Below the pieces are notes generated by a model, which was not told where the DNA came from, ran no database searches, and saw only the letters and a list, made by a program, of their open reading frames with translations. Positions 23,741-64,000 of a DNA stretch of 64,000 bases are shown here, in pieces. The first letter of the stretch is position 1. Every line of letters starts with the position of its first letter. The position numbers and the translations under genes are program-made. Location of the stretch: contig OZ024745.1 of the NCBI GenBank assembly GCA_964016885.1, positions 4,650,001 through 4,714,000 of the forward strand, written 5' to 3'. This stretch comes from Eledone cirrhosa. Taxonomy: Eukaryota.

Positions 23741-23859
23741 ATATTTATTAAAATAACAGATTAAAGTTTAAGCAAAGAATCTCTGCTTTCAGAAGATCCC
23801 GTTAAGGGTGAAAGCAGTGATTCTTTGCTTAAATTTTAATCTGTTATTTTAATAAATAT
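23741..23859. repeat. ~51-bp inverted repeat with 17-bp loop (probable Penelope pLTR remnant)
   Basis: Arms 23741-23791 and 23809-23859 are reverse complements with 2 mismatches. Flanked by (TA)n. Confidence 0.85.
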
Positions 23860-32081: not shown

Positions 32082-32205
32082 GGAAAGTTATATTTAAATT
32101 GTTGTGTTACAACTAGTAAATATTTATAACTGATATAAAAGCACTCGACAAATATTTGGAGTATATTTACAATATTAAATAAATGGAAACTATATTTATA
32201 AAACC

Positions 32206-32282
32206 ATATTTATTTCATTATATATATTTCAGGGATAACATATTAACAATATGCTATGCCTTCCTCAGACAAAATACAATAT
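32206..32282 (-). ncRNA. Minimal type I hammerhead ribozyme (Penelope pLTR, left copy)
   Basis: Reverse complement of 36683-36759. One stem II pair is C-G here versus U-G in the right copy. Confidence 0.85.
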
Positions 32283-33665: not shown

Positions 33666-34648
33666 CTACATTTTAAATTTAAATTTATATTTAAACGTTG
33701 AGTTTAATCTATGTTTGCAACAACTGAATAAATTTGTCCGTAGATTAAGGGAATTTTTAGATTTTAGTATAAAGAATATCTCCTCTGCGCAGAGGTCACA
33801 TGTCTCAGAGGATGAATTAAAAGGAGTCCCCCTTGAGACTATATTCCAAGCCGTCGAATATCTAACGTTATCTAGCTTAAGTTGCCATAGTACGCCTGAT
33901 AGTGCCGTTGAAGATTTTTTACTTGGATCTGTGAAAGAATTCTTGTGGTTATTATAGCGAAGTTTAAATTCCGTCGATGTGGAACCGACGTAGTTAAAAG
34001 AATTAGAGTCAGTATTAACATTACAATTGTATACTATATTTTTAACTAAGCAGTTGTTATTTAACGGACATTTAGATCTATCTCTACAGTTACATTTGTT
34101 AACTTGTATATTATTTATGCTGTTATCACTAGGTTTTAAGTTCCTATTATTTATTCTATTGATATTTTGTGCTAAATTTTTGGTGGATGAGTAGGTTAAT
34201 TTAATTGTATGTCTATTGAAAATTGAGTGATATCTATGTGTTCTAGGGAAGCGATTATCAAGAGCTTTAAAAAATAGTTTAGCGATGTGGGTTTTAATGT
34301 TTAGTGAGAAGGGGGGGGGGGGGGCAAACCAAATTATGTTCCTAGTTCTATTTCTTTTTTGGCCTTTGGAATTATTGTAATGCTTTCTATTATAGTTGTT
34401 AAGGATGTTGCCGTAATTAAAAAAGTTGTTACTTTGTTTAGTTTGTCTATCATTATCTATGTACACAATCTTATCAGCATATCCTGCTCTAGCTAATGCT
34501 TCATTGTAGTATTGAGCTTTTTCGTCGAAAATCTTTCTATTCGACGAGATCCTAGAGATACGTTTTTGGACAGAGTTTACTATAGTGTTTTTGACAGATC
34601 TGGGGTGGTTAGAGTTAAAGTTTACATAGTTTAAGTTTTCATTCAACT
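33666..34648 (-). pseudogene. Penelope-like ORF C-terminal half: RT thumb, Cys-rich linker and GIY-YIG endonuclease
   Basis: YVNFNSNHP, IIWF.PPFS, CNCRDRSKCPLNNNC, NIVY...YVGST..FKLRYNNHKNSF, CDLCAEE...CKH. Open to the stop but lacks the N-terminus and RT core. Confidence 0.9.
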
Positions 34649-34989
34649 GATCCCATAGTAATGTCAAAATTGCTATCTCTATCTGCTCTGGTCCATAGTT
34701 GTTCATTAAATTCTATCAAAGTTTTCCTAGCCGATAATATAATATGCATTTCATTGCTAGTTAGGTCAGTATGTTTGAATGCGTAATTTAGTGCCTTATT
34801 TAGTAGATTAGGGGTAATAGAAGAATAATAGTTAGCTATATCAAGTTGAATAAACTTATTATTATTGTTATATTTAATTTGCTTAAACCACTCAACGACT
34901 TCTCCAGTTCCCTTCCACAAGCTCAGGTTAGATAAATAATCCAAGTTCTTAATTTGCTGTATCACCCCTGTCTTCACTATCCTTTTCAC
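34649..34989 (-). pseudogene. Penelope-like reverse transcriptase fragment
   Basis: LWKGTGEVVEWF..KFIQLDIANYYSSIT..FDITMGS, broken before the catalytic DD motif. Confidence 0.85.
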
Positions 34990-36682
34990 AAGTTGAATGA
35001 AAACTTAAACTATGTAAACTTTAACTCTAACCACCCCAGATCTGTCAAAAACACTATAGTAAACTCTGTCCAAAAACGTATCTCTTAAGCTAGATAACGT
35101 TAGATATTCGACGGCTTGGAATATAGTCTCAAGAGGGACTCCTTTTAATTCATCCTCTGAGACATGTGACCTCTGCGCAGAGGAGATATTCTTTATACTA
35201 AAATCTAAAAATTCCCTTAATCTACGGACAAATTTATTCAGTTGTTGCAAACATAGATTAAACTCAACGTTTAAATATAAATTTAAATTTAAAATGTAGT
35301 ATATTTAGTTTGATTTATAATTATATGGGAAACTAGCCGATAAATCTTTGATTCTCTTTTTACTCTTTTTATTTTAATTTTATTTATTTAAACATTCTTC
35401 ATGAAAAATTAAGCTATCCTAAAAGTTGATGCTCCAAATATTTCGAATAAACGTTACACTAGATAAACTTCTATATTAAATATAAAAACACATGTAGACC
35501 AAATTGGGCATCCTATACTTTTTGAATTGATCTTTGCTAGATGCGATTTGATAGATAATTTTTGGCTTTATCTGTTTTTCGACTCTGATGTTTATAATGA
35601 ACTTGGCAATATATTGTCAATTAATTTTGAAGGGTTGATCTTTGTGGTTTATTTTATTTTTATTACTGTAGTATTTCCTAATTTTTATTTTTAATATTTT
35701 TAATATGTAAATTTTTTAATATGTAATATTTTTAATATGTAATATTCTTTCGTAATATTTCTTAGTTTTCTATTTTATTATTACTTATTATTATTATTGT
35801 TATTTTTAGTTTAGTTTTGTTTCCGATATATTTTTATTTTTATTTTTATTAGTATATTGAAATCTGCTCTATCTTTGCTTGATAGATAATCTTGTAGAGT
35901 AGAGACAGAAATAGTAATATTGACTCTATATACACATATATGTATACTTAAATTTTTATACCGCATTGAGAATACTTTCCGTGAACTTAGGGTTTGCAGA
36001 ATTGATCATGTACATTCACATAGATGTTTGTAATTATCACATAAACATATGAATTTTTTAAAAAACTAAACATAAGATCATTAATTTTCACACAATGTGG
36101 ATACATATCTCATTCAGGAATACTGATATTTGCAATGCAGAGGCTGGTTTTGTAAATACTAATACCTCTACATTAAAACAGAGGTTGTTACGCCTCGCCT
36201 GTGTCTGGATGTTTTTGAATTTTCTCTCTCTCTTTTTTTCTCTCTCTATATTTTTTCTCTCCCTATATAACAGCTGGTTTTCCCTCCATATATTTCCCTT
36301 ACATTAATACTAGAGCTAAATAAATAAATAAATAAATAAATGTATCATTGATACGTTATTCAACAGTCGTCCCACTACCTAGCTTTCTATATATGTATCT
36401 ATCTCTATTTCCTCTCTCTCTATATATATATCTCTTTCTGTTTCTTTACATGAAGTTCTTCTCTTTATCTATCTTTCCATCTCTCTATTTTGTTCCATGC
36501 ATTTCTTCTTTTTCTTTTTCTTCGTTTTCTGTCTTTCTTTCCTTTTTCTCTCTTTTTCTCTCTTTCTTTCTCTCTCTCTTTCTTTCTCTCTGTGTACAAT
36601 TTTGTCACAACCAAATCAACCTTCTCAAATGCAAGTAGATGTTGTTACGGTATGTCGAATCTATTTATCTATAAAACTGTTT

Positions 36683-36759
36683 ATATTGTATTTTGTCTGA
36701 GGAAGGCATAGTATATTGTTAATATGTTATCCCTGAAATATATATAATGAAATAAATAT
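36683..36759 (+). ncRNA. Minimal type I hammerhead ribozyme (Penelope pLTR, right copy)
   Basis: Stem I TATTTTGT/ATGAAATA; CTGAGGA 36697-703; 14-bp stem II with one mismatch; GAAA 36735-38; palindromic TATATA; AUA cleavage after 36746. Confidence 0.85.
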
Positions 36760-36791
36760 GGTTTTATAAATATAGTTTCCATTTATTTAAT

Positions 36792-36820
<29 letters not shown>

Positions 36821-36823: not shown

Positions 36824-38232
36824 ATCATCATCATCATCATCATCATTTTACGTCCGCTTTTCCCTGCTTGCAAGGGTGGGACGGGTCTTATTCAGCACAG
36901 CATCTCTCCACTCGTCACGGTCCCTCGTCATCTCCACCGTGAGCTTCAATGATCTGAGGTCTGTTCTCACCACCTCCGCCCATGTTTTTCGTGGTCTACC
37001 TCTACCACGTCTTCCTTCAACTGGCATTTCCTGGCACTTCTTCACCCATCGGTCATCCTCCATGCGCATCACATGTCCATACCACCTCAGTCTCCTCTCC
37101 CGTACACTACATTCTATCCCTCTCAGACACAGTTTCTCTCTCAACACATTTATGCTGGGTCGTTCACGCACATTTACACTGCACATCCAACGGAGCATGC
37201 TTGCCTCATTTCTCTCCAGCCGTCGCATATCTTCTGCGGTAGCTGCCCATGTCTCACTACCATGCAGCATCGCGCTCCTCACACAGGCATCATACAACCG
37301 GCCTTTCGTACGCAGGGAGAAACCCTTCTTCGTCAACAGAGGAAGCAGCTCCCTAAACTTCTTCCAACCCGTCCTTATTCTAGATACTATGGCCTCGGAA
37401 CACCCTCCTCCCATGCTAATCTGATCTCCTAGGTACCGGAAGCTATCCACCACTTCTATAGCCCCCTCTCGCATTTGAAAAATGTGTCTATCAGTGCGAC
37501 TTCTACTGTCTAATTTCCCTGTACATCTACTGCATACATATTTCTCCCTACCTGTTAGTTTGCCTGCTATCCCGCTACATCTCTTGTGTACCCAGGACCT
37601 ACATTGTGTGCATTTTATAGAATTTATGCCAGTTCCTTTTCTGCATATCGAACATGGCCATTTCCCTGACGGAATCAGGGTTTTGTCCTCTTTTCTACTC
37701 ATCAACACTTTTGTCTTAGCTAGATTTACTCTCAGTCCTCTTGCTTCCAACTGCTGTTTCCATAGCCGGAATTTATTCTCTAGCTCCTCTACTGATTCTG
37801 CCATAAGAGCCAGATCGTCAGCATAGAGAAGTTCCCATGGACAGCCAGTCTTAAACTCCTCTGTTATGGCTTGGAGGACTATAATGAACAAGAGCGGGCT
37901 GAGGACCGAACCCTGATGTACTCCTACTTGTATCTGGAATTCCTCACTAAACTCCATTCCTACCCTGACTTTACTGAGAGTACCTCTGTACAAAGTTTGC
38001 ACTGTCCTTACAAGCCATTCCTCAACACCCAGCTTCCTTAGGGACCACCAGATGACAGATCGGGGTACCCTATCAAAGGCCTTCTCTAGGTCAACAAAGG
38101 CTAAGTATAGTGGCTTATTCTTCTCTAAGAACCTCTCTTGCATTTGTCTCACCAAGAAGAGGGCATCTGTTGTACTCTTCCCAGGCACAAAACCAAACTG
38201 CATCTCATCTAGTTTGACCCTTTCTCTAGTGA
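36821..38232 (-). mobile_element. Young 5'-truncated RTE LINE
   Basis: Uninterrupted ORF running straight into the (GAT)n tail, inserted next to (TA)n. Confidence 0.95.
36848..38203 (-). CDS. RTE reverse transcriptase, partial (451 aa, lacks APE endonuclease)
   Basis: QFGF..STTDA, FVDLEKAFD, GVHQGSVLSP, LLYADD, FRYLG, WYGHVMRM, RGRPRKTW, plus a PHD-like Cys/His insert. Confidence 0.93.
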   Translation of the reverse strand: MQFGFVPGKSTTDALFLVRQMQERFLEKNKPLYLAFVDLEKAFDRVPRSVIWWSLRKLGVEEWLVRTVQTLYRGTLSKVRVGMEFSEEFQIQVGVHQGSVLSPLLFIIVLQAITEEFKTGCPWELLYADDLALMAESVEELENKFRLWKQQLEARGLRVNLAKTKVLMSRKEDKTLIPSGKWPCSICRKGTGINSIKCTQCRSWVHKRCSGIAGKLTGREKYVCSRCTGKLDSRSRTDRHIFQMREGAIEVVDSFRYLGDQISMGGGCSEAIVSRIRTGWKKFRELLPLLTKKGFSLRTKGRLYDACVRSAMLHGSETWAATAEDMRRLERNEASMLRWMCSVNVRERPSINVLREKLCLRGIECSVRERRLRWYGHVMRMEDDRWVKKCQEMPVEGRRGRGRPRKTWAEVVRTDLRSLKLTVEMTRDRDEWRDAVLNKTRPTLASREKRT

Positions 38233-38839
38233 TTTAATTCAGTGATAATATTTTCGACATTTGCAAGGTAATGGACAAACACAAATTACACGCTGTAAAT
38301 TATATTCATAGATGCAACATAACATTATTTAAAAAGTTGTTTAATCTTCAGAGATATTAATAACAATAAAGACATTTTATAATGTAGTAAGAAGACTTAT
38401 CTCCAGATTCTTTTCATGTTATGATAACATGATAAATATTCTTTATTGTAAGTTTACTAAAATATTATCTTATGATACACAAAACCTGGATAATACCGGC
38501 TAATTTATCTTTGCAGCACATTAGAAAGGAGAGGAAGTGGAATAAATTGAATGTTTTACCATTATTTTTCTATTCTTTGTGCGGTTGATTGTCTTTGATC
38601 ACCAACTTTTGTTAGTGATCAATTCTATATGTACAGATCCTATTCTAAATCTACTTCATTGTAACCATGTTGCATTACTTCCGATGTAACTTAAGAAATA
38701 TCCCAGATATTGTTTTATTGGTTAATCAAGGAGTGGAGGGCAGCGCCGATGACCTTTTTTATGAGCCAACAAACCTGGTGAGAGGAAGTAAGAAAAGTTC
38801 CCTTAAACCAGATACCTAGTCTGAATTTTTGCAACACAT

Positions 38840-39374: not shown

Positions 39375-39727
39375 TGTTTTACTAGAAGACTACAGCAATA
39401 TAAATGGGACATTAAATGTTAAACAATATAATGATAACAAAGATGTTAAATGTTACCTTGGAGTTGTTTAGTGGTCCTTAATATTTCAGGATAAAATCCC
39501 TTTATCAAAAGAATAAGTGAAGCGACTGACAGCATAAGAATGACACAAGATATGCTGTGCTGAATTAGTTTCTTCGATGGTTGATTTTTTTTTTGATAAA
39601 GGGATTTTATCCTGAAATATTAATGACTATTAAACAACTCCAAGGTAACATTTCAACATCTTTGTTATCATTATATTGTTTAACATTTAATGTCCCATTT
39701 GTATTGATGTAGTCTTCTAGTAAAACA
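39375..39727. repeat. ~136-bp inverted repeat with 80-bp spacer (probable decayed Penelope pLTR pair)
   Basis: Arms 39375-39510 and 39591-39727; inner ends read TTGATAAAGGGATTTTATCCTGAAATAT. Confidence 0.85.
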
Positions 39728-41311: not shown

Positions 41312-41397
41312 GTCATTTGAAATTATACAATTTTATTTGGCTTATCATCAGGATTATGATGATGATGATGATGATGATTATAATAATAATAATAATT

Positions 41398-41497
41398 GTT
41401 TCTACTTTAGGCACAAGGCCACCAATTACCCAGTGTATTACTGGTACTTTATTTTATCGACCCCGTAAGGATGAAAGGCAAAGTTAACCTTGGCGGG
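41398..41497 (-). mobile_element. SINE 3' half, adjoining the CR1 tail
   Basis: TTTCTACTTTAGGCACAAGGCC...ACTGGTACTTTATTTTATCGACCCCGTAAGGATGAAAGGC. Confidence 0.8.
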
Positions 41498-42345
41498 ATA
41501 ATAATGAAATATTGTGTACAGTGCTCAGGTGCACTACAACTCATCAAAAAGTGTATGTATAGTACATAGGGTAATGTACAAACGTCAGGAAAATGAACAG
41601 TGTATGAGTCATAATATACACATGTGTGCATGTGTATGGAAGGGGTACATCAGGTGTAGTTTTGCGGAATTTCGGGAAGCATGAGGGTTTTAAAGGATGC
41701 AGTGTCTCGACAGCTAACCACTGATGCAGGCAGTTTGTTCCATGCTTCAGCAACTCTGAGTGTGAAAAAATGTTTCCGAAAGTCATGGGCGCTGTGCTGT
41801 TTTCTGATTTTGTAGGCATGTCCACGTGTGTTAGACACATGGAGATCAAAAAGGTGCTCAGGGTTGTTGTTGGCGAGATGGTTAATAACTTTGTGGGTGT
41901 TTACCAAGTCCATTGCCAGGCGTCGGAGCTTCAATGAATCCATGCCCAGGAAAGCAAGGCGTTCAGAGTATGGTAGGTGTCTGATGGAGGGTATGCACTT
42001 GGTTGTTCTGAGCAAGATAGGGGTTCTAGACTGATGATGCGAATTCCAAGTGTGGTCGTACCAAAGTTGTATACAGCTTTAAATAGATGGCTGGAGAGCG
42101 GCTAACAAAGGTCTTGCTGAGTGATGCCAAGACACCCTCGGCTTTCTTGACAATCTTAGACATGTTTTGTCCAACGCAAATCGCTGCTGACAGTAATGCC
42201 CAGGTCACGTTCACAAGAGGACTTCTTGATATCAGTGTTGTAGAGGGAGTATGTGGACGCTGGATTTTTCCTCCCAAAATGCATGGTGGTACACTTGTCC
42301 ACAGCCAGCTCCATTGTTTAATGTCTGCTTTCCATATTAGCAAGT
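41498..42345 (-). mobile_element. CR1-clade LINE 3' fragment
   Basis: LKLYTTLVRPHLEFASSV, LPYSERL..LKLRRL..D, TRGH..K, FFTLRV..WNKLP, plus a 3' UTR. Confidence 0.92.
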
Positions 42346-43276: not shown

Positions 43277-45995
43277 ACTTACCTATAGGCTAAATAAGCT
43301 ATATCTGAGGGCCACACATCTTCAGTATAGTCAGTACTAGACTTACCTATAGGCTAAATAAGCTATATCTGAGGGCCACACATCCTCAGTATAGTCAGTA
43401 CTAGACTTACCTATAGGCTAAATAAGCTATATCTGAGGGCCACACATCCTCAGTATAGTCAGTACTAGACTTACCTATAGGCTAAATAAGCTACATCTGA
43501 GGGTCACACAGTATAGTCAGTACTAGACTTACCTATAGGCTAAATAAGCTATATCTGAGGGCCACACATCCTCAGTATAGTCAGTACTAGACTTACCTAT
43601 AGGCTAAATAAGCTATATCTGAGGGTCACACAGTATAGTCAGTACTAGACTTACCTATAGGCTAAATAAGCTATATCTGAGGGTCACACATCCTCACTAT
43701 AGTCAGTACTAGACTTACCTATAGGTTAAATAAGCTACATCTGAGGGTCACACAGTATAGTCAGTACTAGACTTACCTATAGGCTAAATAAGCTACATCT
43801 GAGGGTCACACAGTATAGTCAGTACTAGACTTACCTATAGGCTAAATAAGCTATATCTGAGGGCCACACATCCTCAGTATAGTCAGTACTAGACTTACCT
43901 ATAGGTTAAATAAGCTACATCTGAGGGTCACACAGTATAGTCAGTACTAGACTTACCTATAGGCTAAATAAGCTATATCTGAGGGCCACACATCCTCAGT
44001 ATAGTCAGTACTAGACTTACCTATAGGCTAAATAAGCTATATCTGAGGGTCACACAGTATAGTCAGTACTAGACTTACCTATAGGCTAAATAAGCTATAT
44101 CTGAGGGTCACACATCCTCACTATAGTCAGTACTAGACTTACCTATAGGTTAAATAAGCTACATCTGAGGGTCACACAGTATAGTCAGTACTAGACTTAC
44201 CTATAGGCTAAATAAGCTACATCTGAGGGTCACACAGTATAGTCAGTACTAGACTTACCTATAGGCTAAATAAGCTATATCTGAGGGCCACACATCCTCA
44301 GTATAGTCAGTACTAGACTTACCTATAGGTTAAATAAGCTACATCTGAGGGTCACACAGTATAGTCAGTACTAGACTTACCTATAGGCTAAATAAGCTAT
44401 ATCTGAGGGTCACACATCCTCACTATAGTCAGTACTAGACTTACCTATAGGTTAAATAAGCTACATCTGAGGGTCACACAGTATAGTCAGTACTAGACTT
44501 ACCTATAGGCTAAATAAGCTACATCTGAGGGTCACACAGTATAGTCAGTACTAGACTTACCTATAGGCTAAATAAGCTATATCTGAGGGCCACACATCCT
44601 CAGTATAGTCAGTACTAGACTTACCTATAGGTTAAATAAGCTACATCTGAGGGTCACACAGTATAGTCAGTACTAGACTTACCTATAGGCTAAATAAGCT
44701 ATATCTGAGGGCCACACATCCTCAGTATAGTCAGTACTAGACTTAAGTATAGGCTAAATAAGCTATATGTGAGGGTCACACATCCTCACTATAGTCAGTA
44801 CTAGACTTACCTATAGGTTAAATAAGCTACATCTGAGGGTCACACAGTATAGTCAGTACTAGACTTACCTATAGGCTAAATAAGCTACATCTGAGGGTCA
44901 CACAGTATAGTCAGTACTAGACTTACCTATAGGCTAAATAAGCTATATCTGAGGGCCACACATCCTCAGTATAGTCAGTACTAGACTTACCTATAGGCTA
45001 AATAAGCTATATCTGAGGGCCACACATCCTCAGTATAGTCAGTACTAGACTTACCTATAGGCTAAATAAGCTATATCTGAGGGTCACACAGTATAGTCAG
45101 TACTAGACTTACCTATAGGCTAAATAAGCTATATCTGAGGGCCACACATCCTCAGTATAGTCAGTACTAGACTTAAGTATAGGCTAAATAAGCTATATGT
45201 GAGGGTCACACATCCTCACTATAGTCAGTACTAGACTTACCTATAGGTTAAATAAGCTACATCTGAGAGTCACACAGTATAGTCAGTACTAGACTTACCT
45301 ATAGGCTAAATAAGCTACATCTGAGGGTCACACAGTATAGTCAGTACTAGACTTACCTATAGGCTAAATAAGCTACATCTGAGGGTCACACAGTATAGTC
45401 AGTACTAGACTTACCTATAGGCTAAATAAGCTATATCTGAGGGCCACACATCCTCAGTATAGTCAGTACTAGACTTACCTATAGGCTAAATAAGCTATAT
45501 CTGAGGGCCACACATCCTCAGTATAGTCAGTACTAGACTTACCTATAGGCTAAATAAGCTATATCTGAGGGTCACACAGTATAGTCAGTACTAGACTTAC
45601 CTATAGGCTAAATAAGCTATATCTGAGGGTCACACATCCTCACTATAGTCAGTACTAGACTTACCTATAGGTTAAATAAGCTACATCTGAGGGTCACACA
45701 GTATAGTCAGTACTAGACTTACCTATAGGCTAAATAAGCTATATCTGAGGGCCACACATCCTCAGTATAGTCAGTACTAGACTTAAGTATAGGCTAAATA
45801 AGCTATATGTGAGGGTCACACATCCTCACTATAGTCAGTACTAGACTTACCTATAGGCTAAATAAGCTACATCTGAGGGTCACACAGTATAGTCAGTACT
45901 AAACTTACCTATAGGCTAAATAAGCTACATCTGAGGGCCACACAGTATAATCAGTACTAGACTTACCTATAGGGTAAATAAACTACATCTGAGGG
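43277..45995. repeat. 64/58-bp minisatellite, ~45 units
   Basis: ACTTACCTATAGGCTAAATAAGCTATATCTGAGGGCCACACA(TCCTCA)GTATAGTCAGTACTAG. Confidence 0.97.
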
Positions 45996-46019
45996 CGGCC
46001 ACATACCGTCAGGGGCCTT
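45967..46019 (-). CDS. Candidate 53-nt internal coding exon of an unidentified gene (KAPDGMWPPSDVVYLPY-)
   Basis: T-rich acceptor TTTTTAATGTATTTTTAAAAAG, GC-richer open body, perfect AG|GTAAGT donor. No homology recognised. Confidence 0.4.
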
Positions 46020-46815: not shown

Positions 46816-47089
46816 TCAATATTTGTGAGTTTGTAAAAAATCTTGGAAGATTTGTCGCTACATTTCACTAACAATTGACATCTCTAAACCAATCAAAATC
46901 ACATTCTTCCTATTCAGAATACTAATCTTGGTCGTTCAGTTAAAAGGCGTTAGTTGATTAATCAAATTGTTTAACGAAAATCAAGATTACAAAAATCAAT
47001 ATCCGTCTACAAACACACATCACACGCAAATGAATTTTTTTATCGACAGAAAAGAAAAGAAAACGAAATAGATTTTTATGTAGCTATGT

Positions 47090-47283
47090 ATGGTGAGGGG
47101 GGTTGTTTGGAGTAAGGTCAGACTTAGCTGAACAGATCTATGATTAAAGTCACTCCAGTCATGACCATCTCGTTTATTTAGGTTAATTTGGAGTCTCCTT
47201 CTCCATTTTAAGACGGTTGGAGTATGATTTGAGAAAAATTTGGCTACGATTTTTAGTAAGTCAATTGACCACATAAAGGTTCT
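47090..47283. mobile_element. Dispersed repeat of unknown class (related inverted copy ~46430-46580)
   Basis: TGACCATCTCGT..TGATTTGAGAAAAATTTGGCT matches the reverse complement of the 46430-46580 segment; weaker relatives near 42830 and 52380. Confidence 0.5.
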
Positions 47284-47505
47284 TTCTAAAGTGAAAACGT
47301 CTTACAAATATTATAAAATAACACAAGGGAGGTAATAAAGTAAACATAAGGGAGTTAATAAAGTGATTCCCTTTAGCTGGAACTCTCCATAAATTTACAA
47401 TTAGAGGAGAGTTTAAACCGAAGTAAAAGCGTCCTTGACGATAACCCTATTTCACATTTGTTATTTTCGATTGATTTTTAAGCAATATTTTTTATACATA
47501 TATAC

Positions 47506-47553
<48 letters not shown>

Positions 47554-48936
47554 CTAATATGAGATACGATATATTTTAAAGGAAATCATTAATTGGATAA
47601 ATGTTTCTAAATATGAAGTCTATAATATATTAACGAAGACACTGCGTGTTTTGTGGTGTGTGGTTGTCGTGGAAACTGACAGTTGACAAGAAGTAAAATA
47701 ATATACCACCAGGTTAGTGATATGATAAATATAAAACTAGCCTGCTAAAAGGCAAAATAAAACTAGAAGTTATTTGTATTTAATGTTTTATAAATATGAA
47801 GAGAGAGAGAGAGACGTATTTCTTGATTTATAATTCGAGTGAAATATTACCGTGTACACACACACACATATTTTCTCTCCATTTCTGCCAGTTGTGTCAA
47901 GCATTTAAGATTATATTAAAGGATGAGTTAGATAAAAATTAGACTTATTTCTAAGGATCATGCACTTGTTTACAATATTTAGTGAAGGAGACTATTTTTA
48001 TTGGATATATATTTGGTAATTGTTTTTACTATTACAGCCGTCTCGCTTTGGGGGTGAACTTTATGTTTTCCTATTGTTTTTTTTAACGAATATAGCTTTC
48101 AAAACATCGATAATTGTTCATTTTACAACCGGGGAAGGAAGGTGTCGGCGAAAGATTCATTTGAAACAAAAGAAAAAACAACAAAAAATAAAGAAAAACA
48201 AACTTCTACTCAAACGGGAAACGGGTGTAATTGTAAAAAATAATCATATATTTTATTTTTATTTATATTTTGTGTGTAAATGCGAAGATTAATAATTTTT
48301 TCGGCGATATCCAATTTTAGCGGCCTAAATGCCGCTTACTTCAATGTATGAGGCTATTCCAACAAATTTACATTCCCCCTTTTTTAGCCGTTAAAAGAAA
48401 TATAAATTTATTTATTGTTTTTTTTTTGCGATTTATTTGCCACTGGGGCATAGATTTCTTTATTTGCCCCTTTTTTGTTTGTTTGTTTGTTAGTTTGTTT
48501 TTTTGCGATTTATTAGCCTTTTGGGGTCACACACACCCCCGTAGAAAGTGTGCGACCTTTCTGCCAGGGAGCACAGAGAGAGGGGGGTGCTCCCTTCTTC
48601 TCTTACCTGTACAAGCCGATATAGAGAGATGGCCCACTTACACGGGCCATTATTGCTACTTTCACCCATCTTTCATGGAATTGGCTGGGATTGAGTGCCT
48701 TTTTCTCCACCTTGATCCTTCTTTCGAAGTGGTATCGGAAGAAGAGGACCATTTGTTGGCCGGCGACATATCCCCACAGTTTCCTCGTTGCAAACGCATC
48801 TGGGACATTTCTTTTCCAAGGGGTTTCCGTCCCGGAATCTGTGTCTGTAGAGCCTTTCCCGAATGGGCAGGGCCCCTCGGTATAATAGTAAGTATTAGTG
48901 GTTGTAATAAAAATGCAATCAAAATGTAATAAATAC

Positions 48937-49072
48937 CTTCACTGATTTCTTTCCTTATATTATCAACAGAAGTTGGTATGTCACCCAAAGTTCGCTTTGT
49001 ATGTTCCCGAATAGCAGTGAATTTTGATAAAACTGTTTCTAATTCCTTCTCCACAGTAAGACAAATATCCAT
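48937..49072 (-). pseudogene. RMND5: Captured RMND5-like first coding exon (left arm)
   Basis: MDICLTVEKELETVLSKF..., 136 nt ending at a G|GTATTT donor; resembles the recalled RMND5A N-terminus MDQCVTVERELEKVLHKF. Confidence 0.78.
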
Positions 49073-49245
49073 GTGTAGTCCAAAAAGATATAAATCTTTA
49101 AAAAAATTATAATAATTCTTTATTATTATTTTCTTTTTCTGTAAATAATTATTTTTCTATATATCTCAAACCCTGCCAAACACCACATCTGTCCATCTGT
49201 AAATTTAAATGACTGTTCTTTCATACTTATCCTCTTCAACTACAC

Positions 49246-49381
49246 ATGGATATTTGTCTTACTGTGGAGAAGGAATTAGAAACAGTTTTATCAAAATTCA
49301 CTGCTATTCGGGAACATACAAAGCGAACTTTGGGTGACATACCAACTTCTGTTGATAATATAAGGAAAGAAATCAGTGAAG
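49246..49381 (+). pseudogene. RMND5: Captured RMND5-like first coding exon (right arm)
   Basis: Identical peptide and a phase-1 donor at 49382. No downstream RMND5 exons recognised in the window. Confidence 0.78.
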
Positions 49382-50016
49382 GTATTTATTACATTTTGAT
49401 TGCATTTTCATTACAACCACTAATACTTACTATTATACCGAGGGGCCCTGCCCATTCGGGAAAGGCTCTACAGACACGGATTCCGGGACGGAAACCCCTT
49501 GGAAAAGAAATGTCCCAGATGCGTTTGCAACGAGGAAACTGTGGGGATATGTCGCCGGCCAACAAATGGTCCTCTTCTTCCGATACCACTTCGAAAGAAG
49601 GATCAAGGTGGAGAAAAAGGCACTCAATCCCAGCCAATTCCATGAAAGATGGGTGAAAGTAGCAATAATGGCCCGTGTAAGTGGACCATCTCTCTATATC
49701 GGCTTGTACAGGTAAGAGAAGAAGGGAGCACCCCCCTCTCTCTGTGCTCCCTGGCAGAAAGGTCGCACACTTTCTACGGGGGTGTGTGTGACCCCAAAAG
49801 GCTAATAAATCGCAAAAAAACAAACTAACAAACAAACAAACAAAAAAGGGGCAAATAAAGAAATCTATGCCCCAGTGGCAAATAAATCGCAAAAAAAAAA
49901 CCCAATAAATAAATCTATATTTCTTTTAACGGCTAAAAAAAGGGGAATGTAAATTTGTTGGAATAGCCTCATACATTGAAGTAAGCGGCATTTAGGCCGC
50001 TAAAATTGATATCGCC

Positions 50017-50195
50017 ATTTTTTCTACATTTGGCACAATGCCAGCAATTATCTCAGTATATTACTGGTACTTTATTTTATCGACCCCGTAAGGATGAAAG
50101 GTAAAGTTAACCTCGGCCGGATTTGAACTCAGACCGTAAAGGAACATAACTATGCTGGAAAGCATGGCGTCCGACCCTCAACCGATACTGCCAAG
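50017..50195 (-). mobile_element. SINE whose 3' tail is the target of the foldback insertion
   Basis: TTTCTACATTTGGCACAATGCC...ATCGACCCCGTAAGGATGAAAGG...GATTTGAAC. Confidence 0.85.
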
Positions 50196-50609
50196 ATTTC
50201 AGAAAGAATTGTATTTTATGTCTGTCATTCCAAGTTGTTGTTTATATATTTCTATAGTTTTATAAGCAGCAGAAACTCTGCGGTATTTCTTCCGGTTCCT
50301 GAGAGGTTGGCATTCATAAGAATCATTTGTGCCTCTTGGAATCATTAGAGCGTGTATTCTTGTGTGTGTGTGGGGGGGGGGGGCTTTTTCTTCTTCAGCT
50401 TTTTGCATTCTGAGTTGAAATCCTGTTGTGTCTTGCCTGTTTCACTTCATTTGTCAGTTGAAAACCAATGGTTCTTGGATGTCTTTAGTTTTGGACTCAT
50501 GCCTCCTGTTTCAATATGTCTTCCTTCTCTCCCCCCACCTGTCTTGGGGGTCCTGATAACAGTAATTACCACAGCGCCTGACTAAATCAAAAGCACCTCC
50601 CAGAACTAC

Positions 50610-50853
50610 CTGCATTAGTTGTTAGCTGTCAGGACACTGCATCCTTCAAAACTTCCATGTTTCCTGAAATTTGCCAACACTACACCTGACATTCCTCCTC
50701 TATACAAACGCACACATGTATATGTGTCTGTGTATATCATGACTCATACACTGTTTACTTTCCTGACATTTGTACATTATTCTATGTACTATACATGCAC
50801 CTTTGATGAGTTGTAGTGCACCTGAGCACTGTACATGATAATTTTCATTATTA
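50610..50853 (+). mobile_element. CR1 3' end fragment
   Basis: Reverse-complement homologue of 41500-41730. Confidence 0.85.
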
Positions 50854-50949
50854 TATATTGTTATTCATAATTAGTGGAGCTGTCTATAAATATTTGTATA
50901 GAATTTGTTACGTAGGGATTAACTTTAGGTTCAGGGTACAACCTCCACC

Positions 50950-51490
50950 CCAAGCATAATTGTTGCAGGTGCACGTATGCAATGTTTTGTAATGGCTATA
51001 AATTCATATATATTCAAATAGGCTCTGAATTCATCGTCACCTCAAACCTTTTCGTCTGACTCTCATGACATTCTATGCAGAGCCACCAAAAGAAATCTTG
51101 CAAGGCAGTTTTCACAGCTATATTCTGGAGGGCACCTCTCAAAATTTAAGAGGGCTTATATGTTGTTTTTTTTAAAGAGGTTTTTAGATATTCAAGGCTC
51201 CTCGTTGGCTCTCCATACTCTGATGGCTGAACCTCATTCATAAACACCCCGACTTTACAAGCCTTCACTCCTCATAGGGAATATATATAAGATCTTGTAA
51301 TCGCACCCGCAATATTCTGACACCATATAAACAGTGAAGGTTACTGAATTTTGACAATGAAGTTTTTGCCATTGTTGGCAGCTGGCCTTACCAAAGTATC
51401 AGGTGATGCCAGTGATGGTGTTTGGCTATTTCAGAATCTTTGACTCGCTTTCATCCATGGCAAAGCTACGAGTGTGTTGGTTTGCCTAAA
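50950..51490 (+). mobile_element. Highly degenerate CRE-like (RLE) non-LTR retrotransposon C-terminus
   Basis: ~51386-51490 translates LTKVSGDASDGVWLFQNL*LAFIHGKATSVL, resembling the recalled CRE C-terminal motif GD.R...L.QR.S.AIQRGNA.S.L. Upstream boundary uncertain. Confidence 0.45.
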
Positions 51491-51942
51491 ATATTTGAGA
51501 GAAACTCTGGCACCCCATGTTGTGGTGTGTGATTAAGTGTGCAGGTCTCCCACCTACTTCCAGTTCTGTATCTACATCATATAAAGTGACCATTATAAAT
51601 ACCTTTGAGGTAACGAATAATGAAGATTTGTTTGTTATGTGATTAATGATACTGAACATGTAGTTGCCTATTGACAGATTCCTGTGAATCATATAAAGTA
51701 GGTATGGGCAATGTTTCTTGAGCAGTGGGACACATAGGATGATGTCCATCGTAAGGTGGGCCACACTAGTAAAATGAGACGTACCATCGAGAAAGCCAAA
51801 TGGGCTGCAGTTTGGCCCTGGCCCAAAGTATCGGCACACCAGATATTTAAATTAGTTTACACCATACTACTTCCAAAGAAATGAATAAAGCATTGTCATG
51901 TTGAAAACTGGGTCTTTCGATTTATTTGTGCTCCTTTCCAAG

Positions 51943-53101: not shown

Positions 53102-53325
53102 ACCTATATATATTATTTATATATTGTGATATGAAAGTACAACTTTTCTTATTCATGTATGTATTTATTCTTATGGGGGTAAATAAAATCCACAAGCCAC
53201 TACCATAAGACTTAAGGGTCAGTCCATCTCATGGTCCTGGTGGGAGACAGGATGGAGAAGACATTGCCCCAGAGGATGGCAGTGAGGAAGATGTGCTGGA
53301 ACAGACACTCCACCTTGTGGGGTTC

Positions 53326-54599
53326 ACACCTGCAGGTAGCCAACTCCACCCCTATAACAGGGATGTGGTCTAGGGACCAAGACTACCAGAAGTAACCACT
53401 GCCACACCTGCAGGTAGCCAACTCCACCCCTATAACAGGGATGTGGTCTAGGGACCAAGACTACCAGAAGTAACCACTGCCACACCTGCAGGTAGCTAAC
53501 TCCACCCCTATAACAGGGATATAGTCTAGGGACCAAGACTACCAGAAGTAACCACTGCCACACCTGCAGGTAGCTAACTCCACCCTTATAACAGGGATAT
53601 AGTCTAGGGACCAAGACTACCAGAAGTAGCCACTGCCACACCTGCAGGTAGCTAACTCCACCCCTATAACAGGGATGTGGTCTAGGGACCAAGACTACCA
53701 GAAGTAACCACTGCCACACCTGCAGGTAGCTAACTCCACCCCTATAACAGGGATATAGTCTAGGGACCAAGACTACCAGAAGTAACCACTGCCACACCTG
53801 CAGGTAGCTAACTCCACCCTTATAACAGGGATATAGTCTAGGGACCAAGACTACCAGAAGTAGCCACTGCCACACCTGCAGGTAGCTAACTCCACCCCTA
53901 TAACAGGGATGTGGTCTAGGGACCAAGACTACCAGAAGTAACCACTGCCACACCTGCAGGTAGCTAACTCCACCCCTATAACAGGGATATAGTCTAGGGA
54001 CCAAGACTACCAGAAGTAACCACTGCCACACCTGCAGGTAGCTAACTCCACCCTTATAACAGGGATATAGTCTAGGGACCAAGACTACCAGAAGTAGCCA
54101 CTGCCACACCTGCAGGTAGCTAACTCCACCCCTATAACAGGGATGTGGTCTAGGGACCAAGACTACCAGAAGTAACCACTGCCACACCTGCAGGTAGCTA
54201 ACTCCACCCCTATAACAGGGATATAGTCTAGGGACCAAGACTACCAGAAGTAACCACTGCCACACCTGCAGGTAGCTAACTCCACCCTTATAACAGGGAT
54301 ATAGTCTAGGGACCAAGACTACCAGAAGTAGCCACTGCCACACCTGCAGGTAGCTAACTCCACCCCTATAACAGGGATGTGGTCTAGGGACCAAGACTAC
54401 CAGAAGTAACCACTGCCACACCTGCAGGTAGCTAACTCCACCCCTATAACAGGGATGTGGTCTGGGGACCAAGACTGCCAGAAGTAACCACTGCCACACC
54501 TGCAGGTAGCCAACTGCACCCCTATAACAGGGATGTGGTCTGGGGACCAAGACAGCCAGAAGTAACCACTGCCACACTTGCAGGTAGCCAATTCCACTC
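53326..54599. repeat. 78-bp minisatellite, ~16 copies, with 234-bp (3-unit) higher order
   Basis: Unit variants cycle in threes (PHPCYR / LYPCYK / LYPCYR in the ORF track). Confidence 0.97.
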
Positions 54600-55114
54600 C
54601 AGTAACAGTGAACAGGGATGTTTATTTAATCAATCTAAACATGCGTATAGAGCTAATAAGCCATGACTAGGGGAGGTATGAAAGAGAGGGCAACAAGAGG
54701 CAAAATAAGGATTACTAATAGTGTGAAAAGTAACAATTATAAAGTTTCATAGCTGCCATTTATTGAAAGGTCTTGTTTATGGTTAGTTGATCGTTGAAAA
54801 TATATTGTGAAGTCTGTGTTGCTGAGGATGTTTAACATCTAAGTCTTTCGAATTACTAAAGCTGTGTTAGTCATTAAGCTAATATTGTCTTTTCCTCACT
54901 TCATAAGTATTTTTAATTAGATTTTTAATGCTCACTACATTAAATATGCTAACATCAATTTTCCTTTTTGACCGATGGGCAGCAATGACATAGAATGTTT
55001 CTTAGACGTTTTAAACCTGGTGGAACTCATCTCTCACTGGGTTTGAATGTAGCCGATTTCTTCTAGAGTAAGAGAGAGTGAGTGTAGTAGAGAGGAAATG
55101 AGAAAGAGATTTAC

Positions 55115-56589: not shown

Positions 56590-57998
56590 CATCATCATCA
56601 TCATCATCACCGTTTTACATCCGTTCTTCCACGCTAGCATGGGTTAGACGGGTTGTCCTGTTGTGGGCAGTGTCTGGTCGGTTGACCATGCCTTGCTCAT
56701 ACAGGAACTGATTTGGCTTTATTTCTACAGCTGGATGCCCTTCCTAACACCAACCTCATTTAAAGTGAGTGCTGGGTGCTTTTTCGTGGCGCCTACACGT
56801 CCATTTTACAGTGTGGGCTGGTTGCTTTTTTGCCGTGGCACCTCTACGACCACCTTGTGGTGGGGGAAGTGGGGGCATATTGTTTATATGCTTCAGCATG
56901 TACCCATGGGAGGTCGGGTACTCTGTATTACTGCGTGACGCCAGAAGTCACGGTCGTGTGTCATTGACTTTGAGAGGTGTAGTTGGGTAAGGTCGGCTTT
57001 TATCACCTCATCCCAGGTCATCTTGGGTCTCCCCACTCTGCGGTTTCCATCAACTTCTAGTGCTTTGCACCTTTTTATGCAGCTGTCATCCTTCATACAC
57101 ATCACATGTCCATACCAGTGCAACCGCCTTTCCTGCACACAGCATTTGATTCCTCTTATGCTCAGTCTCTCTCTCAATTCATTTATGCTTTGTCGTTCAC
57201 GTATATTACTGTTACACATCCATCGGAGCATGCAGGCTTCGTTTCTCTCTAATCTACGTAAGTCTTCCACCTTCAGCGCCCAGGTCTCACTACCATGCAA
57301 CATTGCTGTTCGGATACACGCATCATACAGTCTGCCTTTCATTCTGAGGGAGAAGCCTTTTGCAGCTAGCAGTGGTAGTAGTTCCCTAAACTTCTTCCAT
57401 CCCGTTCTTACCCTAGTTATTGTACTTTCTGAACACCCACCTCTGCTGCTAATTCGGTCACCTAGGTAGCAGAAGCTGTCTACTGTTTCTACAGAGCCCT
57501 CCCAGAGATTGGTGGTACTTGTTTCCTGTGGCTGTTTGCTGCTTGCTGTCTCAGCACAGCTGCTGCACGTGAAGCCTACATTCTTAATTAAGCTTCCTGA
57601 GATCCCGCTACATCTCTTGTGTACCCATTGTTTGCATTTGGGGCAGAGAATGGAGTTCCTACCTACACCTTTCCTACATACTGAGCAAGGCCATTTGCCT
57701 GAGGGGATCTGGGTTCTGTTTTCTCGTCTACTTACAAGGACCTTAGTCTTTGTCATGTTGACTTTGAGACCCTTTCTTTCTAGTCCCTGCTTCCAAGTTT
57801 GGAATTTATTCTCTAGTTCTATCATAGATTCAGCTATGAGTGCGAGGTCATCAGCATACAGGAGTTCCCATGGGCATCCGGTCTTAAACTCCTCCGTTAT
57901 TGCCTGCAGGACTATGATGAACAGGATGGGGCTAAGAACAGAGCCCTGGTGGACCCCAACCTGTACGCTAAATTCCTCGCTATACTCATTGCTAATCC
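56590..57998 (-). mobile_element. 5'-truncated RTE LINE with 3' UTR
   Basis: GVHQGSVLSP, YADD, Cys-rich insert, WYGHVMCM, GRPKMTW; (CAT)n tail; possible TAGT TSD. Confidence 0.94.
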
Positions 57999-58189
57999 TA
58001 GTGTATTTGGTAATACATTATGCTTAATTAAAAGCATTTTGAAGACCTTACACTGTATATATACATTCATATATACATCGCTATTTCAGAGCACCAATTC
58101 TAATTTTCAATTTTTGCTGGACCGGCAACCGCTCTGTATAATCAGTTCCTGATTATTACTGGAATTCTATAAGAATTCAACATTCATAA

Positions 58190-59544: not shown

Positions 59545-62500
59545 TGATATAGTATTGGTTGTGAAAGATATAGTATGGGGATGAAAGATATAGTATGGAT
59601 GTGATAGATATAATATGGGTGTGAAAGATATAGTATGGCTGTGAAAGATATAGTATGGATGTGATAGATATAGTATGGGTCTGAAAGATATAGTGTGCGT
59701 GTGATAGATATAGTATGGGTGTGATAGATATAGTATAGTTGTGATAGATATAGTATGGGTGTGATAGATATAGTATAGTTGTGATAGATATAGTATGGGC
59801 GGGTTAGATATAGTATGGGTGTGATAGATATAGTATGGGTGTGATAGATATAGTATGGGTGTGATAGATATAGTATAGTTGTGATAGATATAGTATGGGA
59901 GTGATAGATGTAGTATAGTTGTGATAGATATAGTATAGTTGTGATAGATATAGTGTAGTAGTGATAGATATAGTATAGTTGTGATAGATATAGTATGGGA
60001 GTGATAGATATAGTATAGTTGTGATAGATATATGGGAGTGATAGATATAGTATGGGAGTGAAAGATATAGTATAGTTGTGATAGATATAGTATAGTTGTG
60101 ATAGATATAGTATAGTTGTGAAAGAAATAGTATAGTTATGATAGATATAGTATGGGTGTGATAGATATAGTATGGTTGTGATAGATATAGTATGGGTGTG
60201 ATAGATATAGTAGGGGTGTGATAGATAATGTATAGTTGTGATAGATATAGTATGGGTGTGATAGATATAGTATGGTTGTGATAGATATAGTATGGCTGTG
60301 ATAGATATAGTATAGTTTTGATACATATAGCATAGTTGTGACATATATAGTATGCGAGTGATAGATATAATATAGTTGTGATAGATATAGTATAGGTCTG
60401 ATAGATATAGTATAATTTTGATAGATATAGTATAGTTGTGATAGATATAGTATGGGTGTGATAGATATAGTATGGGTGTGATAGATATAGTGTGGGTGTG
60501 ATAGATATAGTATGGTTGTGAAAGATATAGTATGGGTGTAATAGATATAGTATGGGTGTGATAGATATAGTATAGTTATGATAGATATAGTATAGTTGTG
60601 AAAGATATAGTATGGGAGTGATAGATATAGTATGGGTGTGATAGATATAGTATAGGTCTGATAGATATAGTATAATTTTGATAGATATAGTATAGTTGTG
60701 ATAGATATAGTATGGGTGTGATAGATATAGTATAGTTGTGATAGATATAGTATGTGAGTGATAGATATAGTATGGAGTGATAGATATAGTGTGGGTGTGA
60801 TAGATATAGTATGGTTGTGAAAGATATAGTATGGGTGTAATAGATATAGTATGGGAGTGATAGATATAGTATAGTTGTGAGAGATATTGTATGGGTGTGT
60901 TAGATATAGTATTGGTGTGATAGATATAGTATGGGTGTGATAGATATAATATGGGTGTGATAGATACAGTATAGTTTTGATAGATATATTATTGGAGTGA
61001 TAGATATAGTATGGGTGTGAAAGATATAGTATGGGTATGAAAGATATGGTATGGGTGTGATACATATAGTATGGGTGTGAAAGATATAGTATGGGTGTGA
61101 TACATATAGTATGGGTGTGATATATATAGTATAGTTGTGATAGATATAGTATGGGTGGGTTAGATATAGTATGTGTGTGATAGATATAGTATGGGTGTGA
61201 TAGATATAGTATAGTTGTGATAGATACAGTATGGGCGTGATATATATAGTATGGGTGTGAAAGATATAGTATGAGTGTGAAAGATATAGTATGGATGTGA
61301 TAGATATAATATGGGTGTAAAAGATATAGTATGGGTGTGATAGATATAGTATGGTTGTGAAAGATATAGTATGGGTGTGATAGATATAGTATGGATGTGA
61401 TAGATATAGTATGGGTGTGAAAGATATAGTATGGGTGTGATAGATATAGTATGGGTGTGAAAGATATAGTATGGATGTGATAGATATAGTATGGGTGTGA
61501 AAGATATAGTATGGGTGTGATAGATATAGTATGGATGTGATAGATATAGTATGGGTGTGAAAGATATAGTATGGATGTGATAGATATAGTATGGGTGTGA
61601 AAGATATAGTATGGGTGTGATAGATATAGTATAGTTGTGATAGATATAGTATGGGAGTGACAGATATAGCATGGGAGTGAGAGATATAGTATAGTTGTGA
61701 TAGATATAGTATGGGTGTGATAGATATAGTATAGTTGTGATATATATAGTATAGTTGTGATAGATCTAGTATAGTTGTGATAGATATGGTATGGGTGTGA
61801 TAGATATAGTATGAGTGTGATTGATATAGTATGGGTGTGATAGATATAGTATTGTTGTGATCGATATAGTATGGGTGTGATAGATATAGTATGGTTGTGA
61901 TAGATATAGTATGGGTGTGATAGATATAGTATTGTTGTGATAGATATAGTATAGGTGTGATAGATATAGCATAGTTGTGATAGATATAGTATGGGTGTGA
62001 TAGATATAGTATAGTTGTGATAGATATAGTATAGTTGTGATAGATATAGTATGGGAGTGAAAGATATAGTATGAGTGTGAAAAATATAGTATAATTGTGA
62101 TAGATATAGTATAGTTGTGATAGATAGTATGGGAGTGATAGATATAGTATGGGTGTGATAGATATAGTATGGGTGTGATAGATATAGTATGGGTGTGATA
62201 AATATAGTGTGGGTGTGATAGATATAGTGTGGGTGTGATAGATATAGTGTGGGTGTGATAGATATAGTATAGTTGTGATAGATATAGTATAGTTGTGATA
62301 GATCGTATGGGAGTGATAGATATAGTATTGGTGTGATAGATATAGTATTGGTGTGATAGATATAGTACGGGTGTGATAGATATAGTATAGTTGTGATTGA
62401 TATAGTATGGGTGTGATAGATATAGTATAGTTTTGATAGATATAGTATGGGAGTGATAGATATAGTATGGGTGTGATAGATATAGTATGGGCGGGTTAGA

Positions 62501-64000
62501 TATAGTATGGGTGTGATAGATATAGTATGGGTGTGATAGATATAGTATGGGTGTGATAGATATAGTATAGTTGTGATAGATATAGTATGGGTGTAATAGA
62601 TATAGTATAGTTGTGATAGATATAGTATAGTTGTGATAGATCGTATGGGAGTGATAGATATAGTATGGGTGTGATAGATATATTGTGGGTGTGATAGATA
62701 TAGTATGGGTGTGATAGATATAGTATGGGTGAGATAGATATAGTATAGTTGTGATAGATATAGTATGGGTGTGATAGATATAGTATAGATTTGATAGATA
62801 TAGTATGGGAGTGATTGATATAGTATGGGTGTGATAGATATAGTGTGGGTGTGATAGATATAGTATAGTTGTGATAGATATAGTATGGGTGTGATAGATA
62901 TAGTATAGTTGCGATATATATATTATAGTTGTGATAGATATAGTATAGGAGTGATAGATATAGTATAGTTGTGATAGATATCGTATGGGTGTGTTAGATA
63001 TAGTATTGGTGTGATAGATATAGTATGGGTGTGATAGATATAGTATAGGAGTGATAGATATAGTATAGTTGTGATAGATATCGTATGGGTGTGTTAGATA
63101 TAGTATTGGTGTGATAGATATAATATGGGTGTGATTGATATAGTATTGTTTTGATAGATATATTATTGGAGTGATAGATATAGTATGGGTGTGAAAGATA
63201 TAGTATGGGTGTGAAAGATATGGTATGTTTGTGATAGATATAGTATGGGTGTGAAAGATATAGTAAGGGTGTGATACATATAGTATGGGTGTGATAGATG
63301 TAGTATAGTTGTGATAGATATAGTATGGATGGGTTAGATATAGTATGGGTGTGATAGATATAGTATAGTTGTGATAGATACAGTATGGGCGTGATATATA
63401 TAGTATGGGTGTGAAAGATATAGTATGGGGATGAAAGATATAGTATGGATGTGATAGATATAATATGGGTGTGAAAGATATAGTATGGCTGTGAAAGATA
63501 TAGTATGGATGTGATAGATATAGTATGGGTCTGAAAGATATAGTATGGGTGTGATAGATATAGTATAGTTGTGATAGATATAGTATGGGAGTGACAGATA
63601 TAGTATAGTTGTGATAGATATAGTATGGGTGTGGTAGATACAGTATAGTTGTGATATATATAGTGTAGTTGTGATAGATATAGTATGGGTGTAATCGATA
63701 TTGTATAGTTGTGATAGATATAGTATAGTTGTGATAGATATAGTATGGGAGTGAAAGATATAGTATGAGTGTAAAAAATATAGTATAGTTGTGATAGATA
63801 TAGTATGGGTGTGATTGATATAGTATGGGTGTGATAGATATAGTATAGTTGTGATAGATATAGTATGGGAGTGATAGATATAGTATGGGTGTCAAAGATA
63901 TAGTATGGGTGTGAAAGATATAGTATGGGAGTGATAGATATAGTATGGGTGTCAAAGATATAGTATGGGTGTGAAAGATATAGTATGGGTGTGATAGATA
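59545..64000. repeat. 20-bp satellite, >220 monomers, runs off the right edge
   Basis: GTGATAGATATAGTATGGGT / ...GTATAGTT variants. The long YYIYHT ORFs are artefacts. Confidence 0.98.

Follow-up and report, generated by a model that had tools for sequence, protein, structure and literature searches.

The analysed window, a 64,000-nt stretch of the Eledone cirrhosa genome to which all coordinates below refer, harbours a foldback at 48303-50016, composed of two near-identical arms in inverted orientation and a loop of 159 nt between them (Table 1). The arms are identical in 778 of 787 alignment columns, with 3 gap letters, and also align at 98.5% over 790 nt; the clean duplex, formed by 48303-49079 with 49239-50016, is interrupted by 5 substitutions and 2 small indels. 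Each arm contains a copy of one and the same exon, the two copies being identical over 136 nt, facing outward and directly followed by a GT donor. The coordinates assigned to them in the preliminary description (left exon 49072..48937, minus strand; right exon 49246..49381, plus strand) were exact. The same description had proposed that a read-through RNA would fold into ~775 bp of near-perfect dsRNA including both strands of the exon. In agreement with this, 772 arm positions were predicted by RNAfold to pair, with an energy of -1484 kcal/mol for the plus strand and -1513 kcal/mol for the minus strand, and the entire exon lies inside a perfect duplex run of 170 bp starting at 48910.

The arms appear to be composite. 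Their middle segment (48524-48882) has a GC content of 53% and contains 14 CpG; it had no match in Pfam, PDB, Atlas or the protein search (83 candidates, none scored), and its mirrored-arm reading presumably resembles the C-terminal cysteine motif of L1/Tx1 LINE ORF2. The 136-codon frame that runs from the exon into the linker and repeat is open in both arms, and neither a Pfam match nor any other sign of function was found for it. Rfam gave 0 matches across 47000-51500. An AATAAA hexamer closely precedes the antisense exon on the plus (48928) and on the minus strand (49390), which may be due to chance, as the element has six such hexamers per strand.

Table 1. Features of the foldback and its insertion site (positions within the 64,000-nt window).
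Feature	Coordinates	Strand	Evidence
Left target-site duplication, 8 bp	48295..48302	+	Identical to 50017-50024
Left arm, composite terminal inverted repeat, begins GG	48303..49079	+	Arm alignment, RNAfold, loose contig ends in run X5
High-copy terminus of a putative larger transposon family	48303..48430	+	Contig depth in run X1
Two subterminal repeat units of ~35 nt (48407-48441, 48482-48518)	48407..48518	+	Self-BLAST 84-86%, motif scan
High-copy GC-rich middle segment, mosaic of another repeat	48524..48882	unassigned	X1 depth 7,887-40,162, many loose ends
Linker starting with captured splice donor	48883..48936	-	GT donor; parent-type contig in run X4
RMND5A first coding exon, mirror copy	48937..49072	-	Identical to right copy
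Unpaired loop; probably RMND5A 5' leader, oriented into right exon	49080..49238	+	X5 contigs
Right arm, ends CC	49239..50016	+	Arm alignment, RNAfold
RMND5A first coding exon (45 codons, 6 residues replaced), from start codon to phase-1 donor	49246..49381	+	Homologue profile, Octopus proteins
Unspliced read-through frame, 136 codons, exon fused to linker and repeat	49246..49656	+	Open reading frame list
Right target-site duplication, 8 bp	50017..50024	+	Identical to 48295-48302
Dispersed repeat, element inserted at its end	50017..50122	+	89.6% over 106 nt to 41395-41499

The RMND5-like nature of the exon, suggested previously, was confirmed by a profile of 24 homologues, which matched in the PDB only human RMND5A residues 1-46 (E 5e-7); the exon alone gave a weak match to residues 1-42 of the same protein (E 0.036). 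Among 1.84 billion representative sequences 65 relatives of the exon were found. Through the closest of these a protein of 401 residues was reached, which matches human RMND5A at E 5e-156 and whose cluster includes the named RMND5A proteins of Octopus vulgaris, O. bimaculoides and Argonauta. The named Octopus and Argonauta proteins share the same first 45 residues, 39 of which are also found in the element exon, a match that points to an octopus or a near relative as the host. A word-based protein search with the element's own exon returned 9 candidates, none of which scored. Since the window contains no further RMND5A exon, the parent must be located elsewhere or beyond the window.

Of 22 listed sequencing runs, 16 contain some of the stretch and 5 at least half of it; none is recorded as RNA, an absence that is no evidence on expression. 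Contigs of four runs (X1, X4, X5 and X6) were aligned to the left flank, the left arm and the loop. X1, of unrecorded library type, covers the flank evenly and thus looks like DNA. X5, also of unrecorded kind, is taken to be an RNA run, because its parental contig leaves the alignment at the donor and is ~200x deeper than single-copy DNA would be on the repeat scale of that run. This contig, 1,435 nt long and with a depth of 99.5, shows 6 differences to the exon in 129 nt, exits exactly at the donor and would correspond to the spliced parental RMND5A mRNA. Its five listed DNA differences restore five of the six Octopus residues, the sixth site being deduced from the protein. In X4, a run of organism B, the parent-type contig (record 14, 48929-49074) extends 8 nt past the donor, as expected of DNA, and the four further differences listed for it are all synonymous. 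As the parent-type differences yield Octopus residues and the extra ones are synonymous, the changes in the exon sit on the side of the element. The parent-type exons of organisms A and B are separated by at least 4 synonymous differences. Compared by eye with the codons that would encode residues 46-56 of the Octopus protein, the loose-end consensus at the donor agrees at 12 of the 20 fixed positions, which is what a mixture of two records would give.

Identity to the parental exon, a measurement called for in the preliminary description, is 95.3% (6 differences in 129 nt), and divergence of this order does not block targeting. Stretches of 21, 22 and at least 30 nt match the parental contig without any difference, as do 13 of 109 21-mers (31 of 109 when the sixth site is left out of account). 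Both the foldback structure and its ability to match RMND5A are thus plain from the data: the locus holds a long self-complementary sequence matching a target mRNA, as a hairpin RNA source should. All six changes in the exon replace residues, the five DNA changes listed being without exception non-synonymous; this pattern is compatible with drift (P 0.23) without proving it. As for the loop, over 49111-49219 X5 contains two types of contig, an element type with 0 differences and another with 8 differences and 16 gap letters. A further contig, whose depth of 66.9 is approximately the sum of the two loop types, joins the right end of the loop to the exon, which indicates that the loop is probably the captured RMND5A 5' leader.

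The ends of the foldback are those of a DNA transposon. Among the lengths from 4 to 13, only 8 bp matches outside both ends (chance ~4e-5 at local composition). The element interrupts a dispersed repeat, an uninterrupted copy of which lies at 41395-41499, and the last 14 nt of the left flank agree with this paralogue at 12 of 14 positions, as expected for an empty site. Terminal inverted repeats combined with an 8-bp target-site duplication are the hallmarks of a non-autonomous TIR transposon, and the presence of host sequence with an identifiable parent (RMND5A exon 1) would make the element a Pack-TIR, albeit of a variant layout, with the leader between the arms and the exon inside both of them. 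The transposon identity is well supported, and the foldback is most likely a multicopy non-autonomous DNA transposon rather than a one-off inverted duplication. Judging by its GG…CC ends and duplication length, the superfamily is most likely Merlin, for which GG ends, duplications of 8-9 bp and TIRs of 24-462 bp have been described, with 191 sequences in O. bimaculoides (PMC8101967, in the part available). MULE would fit as well, given the long TIRs with internal repeats; MULEs are listed with duplications of 8-11 bp and long TIRs in the accessible part of PMC6446971. No transposase was found for the element, and its terminus motif occurred 0 times in metagenome contigs.

Contig depth supports a family. 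In X1, single contigs with 0 differences have a depth of 641.1 on the exon, 332.1 on the loop and 10.2 on the flank, that is, the exon is ~63x and the loop ~33x as deep as the flank. The exon to loop ratio, 1.93, is close to that predicted for two exons per loop. Roughly 16-33 two-armed copies per haploid genome are estimated, depending on whether the flank contig represents one haplotype or both; as contig depth is no true copy number, the copy scale is given here as tens. Over 48303-48430 the summed contig depth of X1 reaches 8,125-14,137, against 10.2 on the flank, and even if such a many-contig sum gives only a rough scale, the outer 130 bp would appear to mark a much larger family. Three X5 contigs with loose ends before 48303 reveal other flanks at the exact terminus; these may come from relatives without the exon, the comparison being one of contigs and not of whole second copies. 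Joints between loop and exon are present in all four runs examined. A 0-difference contig of X4 extends to the left junction, its overlap on the exon side being 30 letters, one fewer than the bridging rule requires. The terminus depths of X4 (0 and 1.1, against 36 and 61 predicted for contamination by an X1-like genome) are a hole in coverage and no proof against contamination. Element-type exon contigs (48937-49079) show 0 differences in runs labelled as three organisms, a lead that may point to recent spread across species, to horizontal transfer, or to mixed or mislabelled samples.

Several other repeats were noted in the window. A second, larger foldback occupies 32162-36803, with arms of 1,720 nt that are 99.8% identical and a right end adjoining a TA run; open frames inside it (33666-35004, minus strand) had no Pfam match and are presumably derived from a Penelope-like retroelement. 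Three fragments of a reverse-transcriptase element that has an internal PHD-like finger, mutually 68-74% identical, were found at 36848-38233 and 56893-58017 (both minus strand) and at 29143-30591, the former two with Pfam matches to RVT_1 and PHD. Shorter palindromes at 39375-39727 and 23741-23859, ~85% self-complementary over 353 and 119 nt, respectively, are possibly older MITE-like elements.

Whether any copy is transcribed was assessed in X5. Element-type contigs with 0 differences are present in this run with a depth of 31.5 on the exon and 23 on the loop. Relative to X1, the element-type exon stands at 0.049, other repeat bins ranging from 0.008 to 0.084 (Spearman 0.68 over 14 bins); as the exon level falls inside this range, DNA carry-over or intronic background could explain the signal. 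The element-type exon contig of X5, however, stops at the donor, where two unrelated loose ends start, one of them accounted for by the parental contig and the second known from its consensus only, whereas the exon contig of X1 passes through the donor unbroken. This combination suggests that some copy is spliced into a foreign exon and hence gives a sense transcript. As the copies are identical and indistinguishable, the signal is tied to no particular locus, the copy in the window included, and contigs reveal neither strand, nor level, nor whether both arms share one RNA.

The left flank has almost no depth in X5. Over 49030-49075 the listed contigs explain 7392 of 7397 depth-bases, the remainder fitting one contig that starts near 49101, and no contig is apparent for the left exon-to-loop junction; the arithmetic of X6 is the same. 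The missing junction would be in keeping with one-armed transcripts that begin in the captured leader, bearing in mind that filters leave holes in coverage and that edited or snapped-back RNA may fail to assemble. Satellite arrays with units of 26, ~122, 78 and 20 bp extend over 1-22635, 43277-45996, 53325-54608 and 59546-64000, and the heterochromatic look they give to the region lowers the prior for read-through at the copy in the window. Of the 65 frames in 22600-59600 that stay open for at least 90 codons, a length at which short exons would escape, none was recognised as part of a host gene.

As to the fate of a hairpin RNA, the preliminary description had envisaged endo-siRNAs or piRNAs against the host mRNA, or hyper-editing. 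The siRNA branch of this proposal seems rather doubtful, since in the available parts of two surveys molluscs are reported to lack DICER2, the siRNA Argonaute and an endo-siRNA signature (PMC11114477, PMC12479628), siRNA-like read pairs being at least fivefold below those of species with siRNAs, O. bimaculoides included (PMC12479628). Mollusc DICER1 is described as keeping its helicase and PAZ domains, with a diverged helicase box in Cephalopoda, and the route by which mammals make endo-siRNAs through the miRNA Dicer is left open for Trochozoa (PMC11114477, part of the text). Silencing of RMND5A by siRNAs from the foldback therefore appears unlikely. Molluscan piRNAs, on the other hand, are reported as abundant in soma and gonad, with phasing and ping-pong (PMC12479628, in part), and the high-copy middle segment precedes the antisense exon on either strand, which might offer a route to phased antisense piRNAs.

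The editing background invoked for coleoids agrees with the literature: the hyper-editing of Octopus bimaculoides is reported as exceptionally high, palindromic transposons are heavily edited in frog, and loci subject to editing often give no unedited reads (PMC5625713, in the part consulted). Taken together, these reports suggest that editing would be the likeliest fate of any hairpin, ADAR or piRNAs being likelier than siRNAs, and that it would be invisible in contigs. T>C plus A>G places are not in excess in X5 (21 of 45, against 11 of 24 in X1, 12 of 26 in X4 and 21 of 45 in X6), a comparison made without a matched individual and on contigs, which lose rare or heavily edited reads. In X5, the contig of record 17 carries T>C at 48703 and A>G at 48727; neither change is shown in X1, and X6 has both.

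The observations are best explained by a young insertion of a foldback-type, non-autonomous cut-and-paste transposon, a multicopy Pack-TIR in which the mirrored RMND5A cargo is a passenger, and we regard this reading as probable. An ancestral element would have captured the RMND5A 5' leader, first coding exon and donor site, after which a mirror image of the exon may have arisen in the second arm. The simplest route would be fold-back copying, with a short and imperfect inverted repeat of the leader serving as primer; arm-to-arm conversion would be an alternative. At the inner edge of the arms 7 of 11 further letters pair (P ~0.025), a lead that suits fold-back copying primed in the leader. 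In X6 (organism C), exon and loop form one unbroken contig of depth 250 (record 31, 48963-49245), at a place where X1 breaks, which hints that a one-exon form preceded the mirrored one and may dominate in organism C. The arms differ at 5 of ~770 nt and the exon differs from its parent at 6 of 129, so that an older capture followed by recent spread or homogenisation is indicated. A transposase acting in trans, most likely that of Merlin, would then have spread the mirrored form to the tens of sites estimated from X1, the RMND5A cargo travelling as a passenger. Some copies probably make sense transcripts in which the captured donor is spliced into foreign exons, as one run suggests, and a two-arm transcript would, by the literature cited above, more likely be A-to-I edited than diced. 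Trans-silencing of RMND5A may be a side effect and would not be the reason why the structure exists.

Other readings of the same locus were weighed against the passenger transposon. That the family regulates RMND5A through antisense-exon piRNAs, made from piRNA clusters or from read-through transcripts that are cut in the high-copy middle segment, has a small chance of being right. It could draw on the somatic and gonadal piRNAs of molluscs with their phasing and ping-pong (PMC12479628, part of the text), on the tens of copies, which raise the odds that one lies inside a cluster, on the antisense exon that every copy offers whichever strand is read, and on the uninterrupted matches of 21, 22 and at least 30 nt to the parent. 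However, editing of the 775-bp duplex might precede its processing, the antisense exon is closely preceded on either strand by an AATAAA (48928, plus; 49390, minus), though each strand has six of these hexamers, and the parent-type mRNA contig is present at a depth of 99.5 in the one tissue sampled by X5. The original suggestion of a single silencing locus like maize Mu killer, a hairpin diced into trans-acting siRNAs that cut RMND5A mRNA, was not borne out, as the foldback is one copy of a transposon family, and it must now be called improbable. The near-perfect 772-bp duplex containing both exon strands, the 95% identity to the parent, the helicase and PAZ domains retained by mollusc DICER1 (PMC11114477) and the hairpin dicing proposed for Mu killer (PMC3440606; both sources in part) would all be in keeping with it. 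They are set against the reported lack of DICER2 and siAGO in Mollusca, the diverged helicase box in Cephalopoda (PMC11114477), siRNA-like pairs at least fivefold below those of siRNA species (PMC12479628; again parts of both), a target of one 136-nt exon only, and the lack of a recognised host gene among the 65 frames (at least 90 codons, 22600-59600) to supply read-through.

It is more improbable still that the family is kept for a truncated or chimeric RMND5A N-terminal peptide interfering with assembly of the CTLH ligase. The start codon, frame and donor are intact, the 136-codon frame is open in both arms and a second exit at the donor was seen in X5, but the six exon changes are all replacements, with none synonymous and no trace of purifying selection, and among copies so young and so similar an open frame carries no information. 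A one-off inverted duplication or a fold-back chimera introduced by assembly, which the near-identity of the arms and the second large foldback in the same window might bring to mind, is largely refuted and hardly tenable: the arms differ at 7 places, the target-site duplication is exact, the exon to loop depth ratio is 1.93 in an independent run and the loop-to-exon joints recur in four of four runs.

The passenger transposon may be placed among known systems, described here from the available parts of the papers cited. Like the animal Pack-TIRs Ssk-FB4 of Drosophila and Pack-hAT-N8_XT of frog, it is non-autonomous, carries a host 5' fragment far from its parent, has long foldback arms (~700 bp in FB4), would have spread by repeated transposition and may yield chimeric transcripts, as is often the case in this class (PMC8277862). 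A survey of 100 genomes counted 370 animal Pack-TIRs, 4 of them multicopy, in addition to the fly Ssk-FB4, and at least 30% are transcribed as chimeras (PMC8277862). In contrast to the octopus element, the cargo of those Pack-TIRs lies between the TIRs and not, self-complementary, in both arms, and the multicopy examples shown have 3-4 copies instead of tens (PMC8277862); no mention of octopus, molluscs or Aplysia was found in the text and 12 supplement files of that paper as searched. With Merlin, which is abundant in Octopus bimaculoides, the element shares GG termini and the 8-bp duplication, and it departs from Merlin in its arms of ~777 bp as compared with TIRs of 24-462 bp, although the high-copy terminus alone measures ~130 bp (PMC8101967). 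No DDE_Tnp_IS1595 transposase was seen with the octopus element.

Composite TIRs, internal repeats, 8-11 bp duplications and gene-fragment capture are equally features of MULE/Foldback elements and plant Pack-MULEs (PMC6446971, PMC3169594, PMC3310237). Most listed MULE groups, however, have 9-bp duplications (PMC6446971), and PM-ZIBP of tomato has tandemly doubled TIRs around a gene fragment that is internal and unmirrored (PMC3310237); Tm1, a foldback MULE, may include a host motif (PMC3169594). Maize Mu killer (PMC3440606) is likewise an inverted duplication able to give a long hairpin by read-through, yet it is a single rearranged locus directed against a transposase, in a plant whose siRNA pathway is complete, and not a mobile family with host cargo in a mollusc, a group reported without that pathway. 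The palindromic Harbinger of Xenopus tropicalis, too, is a DNA transposon giving self-dsRNA that serves as an ADAR substrate, but it holds no host exon, and editing has been demonstrated only there (PMC5625713). In the literature searched, which included few subscription papers and had Repbase and Dfam outside its scope, no such element was found for cephalopods, nor an exon mirrored in both arms. The octopus element thus departs from known Pack-TIRs in copy scale, in host group and in the position of the exon inside both arms.

In animals, multicopy DNA transposons with gene cargo are described as rare (PMC8277862, part of the text). Should the family merely drift, it would be a neat if modest case of exon capture. 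It also constitutes a natural test, since a 170-bp perfect host-exon duplex, present in many copies and distinguished from the parent by six diagnostic letters, allows dicing, editing and piRNA production to be compared in a mollusc. A bolder conjecture, which we consider unlikely, is that a young, possibly horizontally spreading family acts as a mobile, orientation-proof hairpin cassette made from the first exon of a conserved ubiquitin-ligase gene. Copies landing in transcribed regions or piRNA clusters would yield small RNAs antisense to RMND5A, and others would provide its leader and first exon to new chimeric transcripts. If this were true, transposon dosage would tune the levels of the CTLH ligase in an animal thought to be without endo-siRNAs.
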